From contig JAQWDH010000006.1 of assembly GCA_028705565.1 (NCBI GenBank), positions 1 to 59,779 of the forward strand: DNA of 59,779 nucleotides, written 5' to 3'. Origin of the DNA: Patescibacteria group bacterium (GTDB lineage: Bacteria; Patescibacteriota; Patescibacteriia; Magasanikbacterales; GWA2-37-8). Continued below: a report on this DNA, generated by a model with database tools. The DNA itself is not shown here.

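Follow-up and report, generated by a model that had tools for sequence, protein, structure and literature searches.

We consider it likely that the window is most of a strain- and species-variable surface-glycan biosynthesis island of Candidatus Magasanikbacteria (CPR/Patescibacteria), a judgement that takes in the assembly pathway proposed here. The full island comprises ~53 genes in ~66 kb and lies between two conserved flanks: on the 5′ side a TPR-domain membrane protein of WaaL/PglL type (g1, 1199..3265), and on the 3′ side UDP-sugar dehydrogenase/epimerase genes that adjoin rpmA/mraZ. The 3′ context comes from a sister strain (98-99% identical), reached via the 90% cluster representative P0001, in which the order past the end of the window is a GH57-like gene, an aminotransferase, an unknown gene, UGDH, SDR, rpmA (minus strand), mraZ and rsmH. 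Full-length orthologs of g1 (43-56% identity) are present in at least 80 Magasanikbacteria/CPR MAGs, and glycan-gene homologs lie within 10 kb 3′ of g1 in 50 of 53 relatives, but half or more of that content is shared by only 12. A backbone of g3-g4-g5-g7-g14-g11 is common to 11 relatives, with a radical SAM (rSAM) homolog inside it in one of the 11 (locus L039). The flanks are constant while the enclosed content and its size differ between relatives: contig CAYZYP010000001.1 carries a g1 ortholog followed ~41 kb further on by UGDH (71%), SDR (75%) and minus-strand rpmA (71%), and in another relative's locus (L042) g1, SDR and rpmA all fall inside 1 kb. The island is a mosaic of modules, each recurring separately in other genomes, and given its mosaic G+C and the independent recurrence of its sub-blocks it may make more than one product.

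CPR/Patescibacteria are ultra-small, mostly uncultured episymbionts whose host attachment and phage exposure depend on the cell surface, and to our knowledge their surface chemistry is essentially undescribed; a search of the literature on CPR/Magasanikbacteria glycan loci, nonulosonic acids and radical-SAM-containing glycan clusters returned nothing relevant. At ~66 kb the island would take up some 5-7% of a genome of ~1 Mb, the genome size being that of relatives' contigs (0.6-1.3 Mb) rather than of this genome, and a hypervariable glycan island of this kind at a fixed chromosomal site would be a very large outlay by one lineage. Its hypervariability and scale imply that the surface is under strong diversifying selection, as at the O-antigen/capsule loci of pathogens. 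The flanks, g1 on one side and UGDH-SDR-rpmA on the other, could serve as a marker for strain typing and for host/phage-range studies in metagenomes.

Could the long co-directional run simply be an assembly artefact? The initial annotation had named a chimeric assembly as what would overturn its reading of the locus, and there are features that might be taken that way, in that Logan contigs break at ~4.8, 8.9, 28.9 and 59.7 kb and the final 126 nt of the window are unlike the sister strain. However, at the 28.9-kb break the two flanking Logan contigs share a 30-nt overlap and match the window at 100% identity, the 96-kb ENA and 76-kb NCBI MAG contigs of the sister strain are collinear with it wherever compared, and gene spacing from g19 to g48 agrees within ~24 nt between the strains. 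With ENA, NCBI and Logan contigs all collinear at 98-100% identity, we reject a chimeric contig, an explanation already largely refuted and by now barely conceivable. The terminal 126 nt are absent from the 95 loci with which they were compared, and a search of Rfam with the whole window, this terminal segment and a hairpin at 49.8 kb gave generic hairpin matches only and no family.

The Wzy_C domain of g1 (PF04932, residues 203-361) reaches 71.3 bits (cut-off 31.7), a hydropathy scan predicts ~12-13 TM helices with an 88-residue loop at 266-352, and R217, R292 and H342, which may correspond to the WaaL catalytic residues, are invariant among 29 g1 orthologs. Single-sequence searches of g1 and of the transferase-like proteins g30 and g32 against PDB chains gave TPR or noise matches only; searches with family profiles were informative for g32 and g1, the membrane domain of g1 matching 9rmk ('Oligosaccharyltransferase', E 2.7e-7) and 7tpg ('polysaccharide polymerase/ligase', WaaL, E 1.4e-6). 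By both its domain and its matches to solved structures, g1 is assigned to the WaaL/PglL (Wzy_C) superfamily of O-antigen ligases and O-oligosaccharyltransferases, in which it may act as a Wzy polymerase instead of a ligase. The exporter gene g31 (38072..39865) encodes a type IV half-transporter of the MsbA/Sav1866/HepA class, for which HepA/MsbA give better scores than PglK (190 bits vs a cut-off of 1000). An ABC-2 transporter encoded upstream was considered as a Wzm/Wzt- or KpsMT-type glycan exporter for the locus and was rejected, because it is DrrAB-type (KpsM 19 bits vs a cut-off of 300) and has a terminator-like hairpin after it, and because its presence ahead of g1 is not conserved among the orthologs.

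Pfam searches of the 48 window genes and the flanking genes gave no Wzx flippase, Wzz/Wzc chain-length regulator or initiating phosphoglycosyltransferase, the last (WecA/MraY- or WbaP/PglC-type) being missing from the window, 5 kb upstream and 7 kb downstream; family scans also detected no LCP ligase. Judged by predicted gene content, then, the locus does not have the make-up of a Wzx/Wzy-dependent O-antigen or capsule pathway. Schemes that transfer a glycan en bloc, with no Wzx, Wzy or Wzz, are found in the Helicobacter pylori-type O-antigen (a Wzk/PglK-class ABC flippase plus WaaL) and in Campylobacter PglK-dependent glycosylation. The island would resemble these if, as we propose, its glycan is completed on a cytoplasmic lipid carrier by many single-addition glycosyltransferases, crosses the membrane through g31, a TMD-NBD half-transporter of the MsbA/PglK class, and is passed on whole by g1, an enzyme of the Wzy_C superfamily, again with no Wzx, Wzy or Wzz. 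It differs from the H. pylori type in the extra TM helix and TPR domain of g1, in having no WecA-type initiating enzyme, and in adding decoration by GT-C enzymes and a set of eight radical SAM enzymes; moreover, because the CPR host is without LPS, the acceptor would not be lipid A-core.

The pathway that we propose would begin with sugar-nucleotide enzymes which, by family membership, would supply three kinds of precursor: a pseudaminic-type nonulosonic acid bearing an acetamidino group (through PseB, PseC, a NeuB-type synthase, a WbuX amidotransferase and a cytidylyltransferase), a Kdo-type CMP-sugar (through the KdsB-like g26, 32121..32897), and uronic acids (through the dehydrogenase and epimerase encoded just past the window). 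At the cytoplasmic face, seven GT4 enzymes, the GT2s and two GT-B-like proteins, g30 (36386..38044) and g32 (39869..41308), would then build a long heteroglycan on a lipid carrier, before g31, the sole MsbA/PglK-class ABC half-transporter, moved the lipid-linked glycan across the membrane. From their pairing and homology, we infer that the ArnC/AglJ-like GT2s g11 and g18 make polyprenyl-phosphate monosaccharides and that the GT-C enzymes g16 and g22 attach these sugars outside the cell. The finished glycan would go via g1 to its acceptor, which, CPR being without LPS, is probably either an S-layer or pilin protein at the surface or some other anchor in the envelope. Tailoring would fall to seven B12-domain and one SPASM radical SAM enzymes, five methyltransferases, ATP-grasp ligases and a ThDP enzyme. 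The genes are physically associated; the chemistry is speculative and might comprise C-/O-methylation, deoxygenation, possible ring remodelling and N-acylation.

The nonulosonic acid genes lie in the 3′ part of the window. PseB (g33, inverting 4,6-dehydratase) and the PseC aminotransferase (g34) exceed their cut-offs (TIGR03589, 454.6 vs 407.75; TIGR03588, 470.6 vs 423.5, respectively), and the putative synthase g38 scores 321.5 to the PseI model (cut-off 340.25), 291 to NeuB_NnaB and 264 bits to Pfam NeuB. Both g37 and g26 have a CTP_transf_3 domain and fall below the PseF cut-off of 205.7 (31 and 44 bits, respectively), and g26 is above the kdsB cut-off. Neither a PseH N-acetyltransferase (GNAT/hexapeptide acyltransferase) nor a PseG UDP-sugar hydrolase was detected among g1-g48 by Pfam/NCBIfam, and the ATP-grasp ligases g41, g43 and g47 might act in place of acetylation. 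A broadly similar inventory is known from the general protein O-glycosylation cluster of Tannerella forsythia, which is 27 kb long and polycistronic and whose S-layer O-glycan ends in a modified pseudaminic/legionaminic acid (PMC6120980, PMC5420450, PMC5378307). Like that cluster, the island combines co-directional glycosyltransferases, methyltransferases and a Pse-type pathway with acetamidino modification, and is species- and strain-variable; the T. forsythia NulO transferase is GT-B/TagB-like, as g30 and g32 may be. Unlike it, the island is ~2.5 times larger, has an ABC exporter where T. forsythia has Wzx, and contains radical SAMs, GT-C enzymes, a Kdo-type cytidylyltransferase and a KpsC-like transferase. 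Also, T. forsythia has the genes for its glycan core and OTase outside the cluster, whereas a Wzy_C-type gene heads this island, and protein glycosylation is a candidate role only.

The two GT-B-like genes, one a new family (g30) and the other KpsC-like (g32), flank the exporter gene g31. In g32, ~95 residues match Capsule_synth (PF05159, 33 bits vs a cut-off of 20), its family profile finds KpsC with E 6e-10 over 70 residues, and its best fold matches are KpsC (TM-score 0.49) and WbbB (0.40). The g30 protein has a GT-B fold and its family profile found nothing in the PDB; with 429 cluster representatives at E<=1e-30, this is a large uncharacterised GT-B family. These genes keep company in other loci: at least 12 have g26 immediately before g30, at least 18 have a g24-type methyltransferase immediately after g30, and homologs of g26 and g30-g32 occur in the order of the window in the relatives' loci L095 and L096. 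KdsA and KdsC are absent from the window; in L095, KdsA-like and HAD (KdsC-like) genes adjoin the KdsB-like g26 homolog. In three further loci (L101, L108, L118) g32 adjoins Pse genes, which makes KpsC-like transferases tied to nonulosonic acid genes candidates for enzymology. The presence of KdsB-like g26 and of a KpsC/WbbB-like gene next to an ABC exporter recalls group 2 capsule priming (KpsS/KpsC beta-Kdo transferases, KdsB, KpsMT) and the WbbB beta-Kdo terminator, and Kdo-type priming on the lipid would explain the missing phosphoglycosyltransferase. The resemblance to group 2 capsules has its limits, in that g31 is a type IV half-transporter and not an ABC-2 KpsMT, KpsD/E were not found, only ~70 residues of g32 align to KpsC in sequence, and the window is without KdsA/KdsC.

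Do these genes then serve a single glycan? An alternative is that at least three independent glycoconjugate pathways are juxtaposed, co-directional only via strong strand bias and the growth of an island at a recombination hot spot: for example, a backbone-plus-tailoring glycan (g1-g25), a Kdo-primed, capsule-like lipid-linked polymer with its own exporter (g26-g32), and a nonulosonic-acid pathway for direct glycosylation of pilins or other proteins (g33-g48). Per-gene G+C alternating in blocks between 0.26 and 0.40 is consistent with this, as are the backbone block in 11 relatives largely without rSAM genes (10 kb sampled 3′ of g1), the recurrence of the g26-g30-g24 triad across CPR without the remainder, the occurrence of the g26-g29 block with rSAM/GT2/AsnB in an alphaproteobacterium, the terminator-like hairpin at 49.8 kb, and a KpsC-like plus KdsB-like pair that recalls capsule priming, for which no phosphoglycosyltransferase is required. 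Nevertheless, ~66 kb hold a single exporter and a single Wzy_C-type protein, a second flippase, ligase or polymerase was not found in the island, transferases that glycosylate proteins directly, of the Maf type or otherwise, were not detected, and packing is unbroken at the block borders (3-27 nt gaps and ATGA overlaps). In addition, the first two blocks are linked by at least 12 distant CPR loci in which a g30-family gene has a g1-like gene in its vicinity. We think separate pathways unlikely.

In the preferred reading, one surface glycan decorated outside the cell, the best-matched relatives of the decorating enzymes are the ArnC/ArnT and GtrB/GtrC modules (also AglJ and PgfS). The ArnC-like g18 aligns to ArnC over residues 4-318 of 322 (185 bits vs an equivalog cut-off of 529) and has three C-terminal TM helices, the AglJ/PpgS-like g11 is without a clear TM helix, and both lie near the GT-C genes g16 (PMT_2 42.5 vs a cut-off of 26.1, eight TM helices) and g22 (PMT_2 24.7, just under that cut-off, 11 TM helices). 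The window has both a GT2 with C-terminal TM helices and a GT-C-fold transferase, as such modules do. It departs from them in that no ORF for a small flippase (GtrA/ArnE-F) was found among the window genes and that B12-radical SAM genes follow each of these two GT2s.

Six of these radical SAM proteins (g6, g12, g13, g21, g25 and g48) have B12-binding and radical SAM domains both above Pfam cut-offs, with a cysteine motif of CX4CX2C in g21 and CX3CX2C in the other five; g48 is probably inactivated. The B12 domain of g9 is below cut-off (23.8 bits) and its motif is CX3CX3C, which AprD4 presumably shares. No rSAM of the island reaches an NCBIfam equivalog cut-off (HpnJ, AprD4, PhpK, BchE, HpnR and others; GenK was not among the matches reported), so any chemistry assigned to them is a guess. 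The best score, that of g12 to HpnJ, is 261 against 578, and that of g9 to AprD4 is 154 against 500, both far under cut-off; HpnJ is still the best model for g12, with a full-length alignment, and g9 and g10 resemble the AprD4 dehydratase and AprD3 reductase pair of aminoglycoside pathways (PMC5461906), GenK/GenD1 also being aminoglycoside enzymes. In HpnI-HpnK-HpnJ, which makes the hopanoid cyclitol ether, and in calditol synthase Cds, radical SAM enzymes remodel lipid-linked sugars, a class-B rSAM acting after a lipid-glycosylating GT2 (PMC13459092), and at least g12 probably works likewise on the lipid-linked sugar from its translationally coupled GT2, g11, as HpnJ does after HpnI. Unlike the Hpn and Apr hosts, this one is not known to make hopanoids or aminoglycosides. 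For the presumed substrate, either a polyprenyl-phosphate sugar or the nascent glycan of the surface, there is no precedent in the review of radical SAM lipid enzymes, where polyprenyl and undecaprenyl are never mentioned (PMC13459092).

The pairing itself is recurrent. Of 80 loci, 24 have a g11/g18-type GT2 on the same strand as a g12-type rSAM and within 300 nt of it, and 36 have one within 1.5 kb; they span many phyla, among them CPR, DPANN archaea, Elusimicrobia, Planctomycetota and Omnitrophota; this island has two or more such sets, and a GT2-rSAM-GT-C-rSAM-SDR-GT4 block is conserved in L128, but by a crude test GT-C homologs stand beside the pair in only six of the 80. We tentatively suggest that GT2 plus B12-rSAM (plus GT-C) cassettes are an undescribed form of surface-glycan tailoring, in which a polyprenyl-phosphate sugar made by an ArnC/AglJ-like GT2 is remodelled by radical chemistry on its lipid, which could mean C-methylation, deoxygenation or HpnJ/Cds-like ring contraction, and is then transferred outside by the GT-C enzyme. 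If this is so, then together with the CPR-wide KdsB-like/g30/methyltransferase/Wzy_C-like module it would imply a CPR lineage-typical, cobalamin-dependent envelope glycoconjugate, made despite minimal genomes and a presumed B12 auxotrophy. The repeated association of B12-radical SAM enzymes with polyprenyl-phosphate sugar synthases is itself a candidate for enzymology. The cultured Paramagnetospirillum marisnigri SP-1 has a related parts list and is a possible experimental entry; a 570-aa unknown protein of its locus was considered as a g30/g32 homolog, a relationship that was not detectable (hhalign probability <1%).

That the radical SAM enzymes are closest to small-molecule sugar enzymes (AprD4-, GenK- and HpnJ-type), and that aminotransferases, ATP-grasp ligases, a ThDP enzyme, methyltransferases and an ABC exporter accompany them, could also bring to mind a secreted glycosylated natural product, such as an aminoglycoside-like or glycolipid antibiotic. 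We hold this to be very improbable, because 14 glycosyltransferase-like genes (two of them GT-C) and a WaaL/PglL-type protein are hallmarks of a lipid-linked surface glycan, the site is conserved with variable content as in O-antigen/capsule loci, and neither a cyclitol core (2-deoxy-scyllo-inosose synthase) nor a PKS or NRPS core came to light.

Finally, are the 48 genes a single polycistronic operon, transcribed from the TTGACT-17-TATAAT promoter at 1143-1171? This sequence is the best intergenic consensus match of the window and lies 3′ of a terminator-like hairpin, all the genes are co-directional with a median gap of 13 nt and 16 overlapping junctions, and the 27-kb glycosylation cluster of T. 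forsythia is polycistronic (PMC6120980). Yet matches to the promoter consensus occur at chance frequency in this AT-rich DNA, and the consensus may not be that of CPR; a very stable hairpin with a U-run at 49783-49860 and eight gaps of 47-127 nt interrupt the run, and its modular, mosaic origin makes internal promoters likely. A single 58-kb transcript therefore seems to us quite improbable, and the genes are probably transcribed as several co-directional units.

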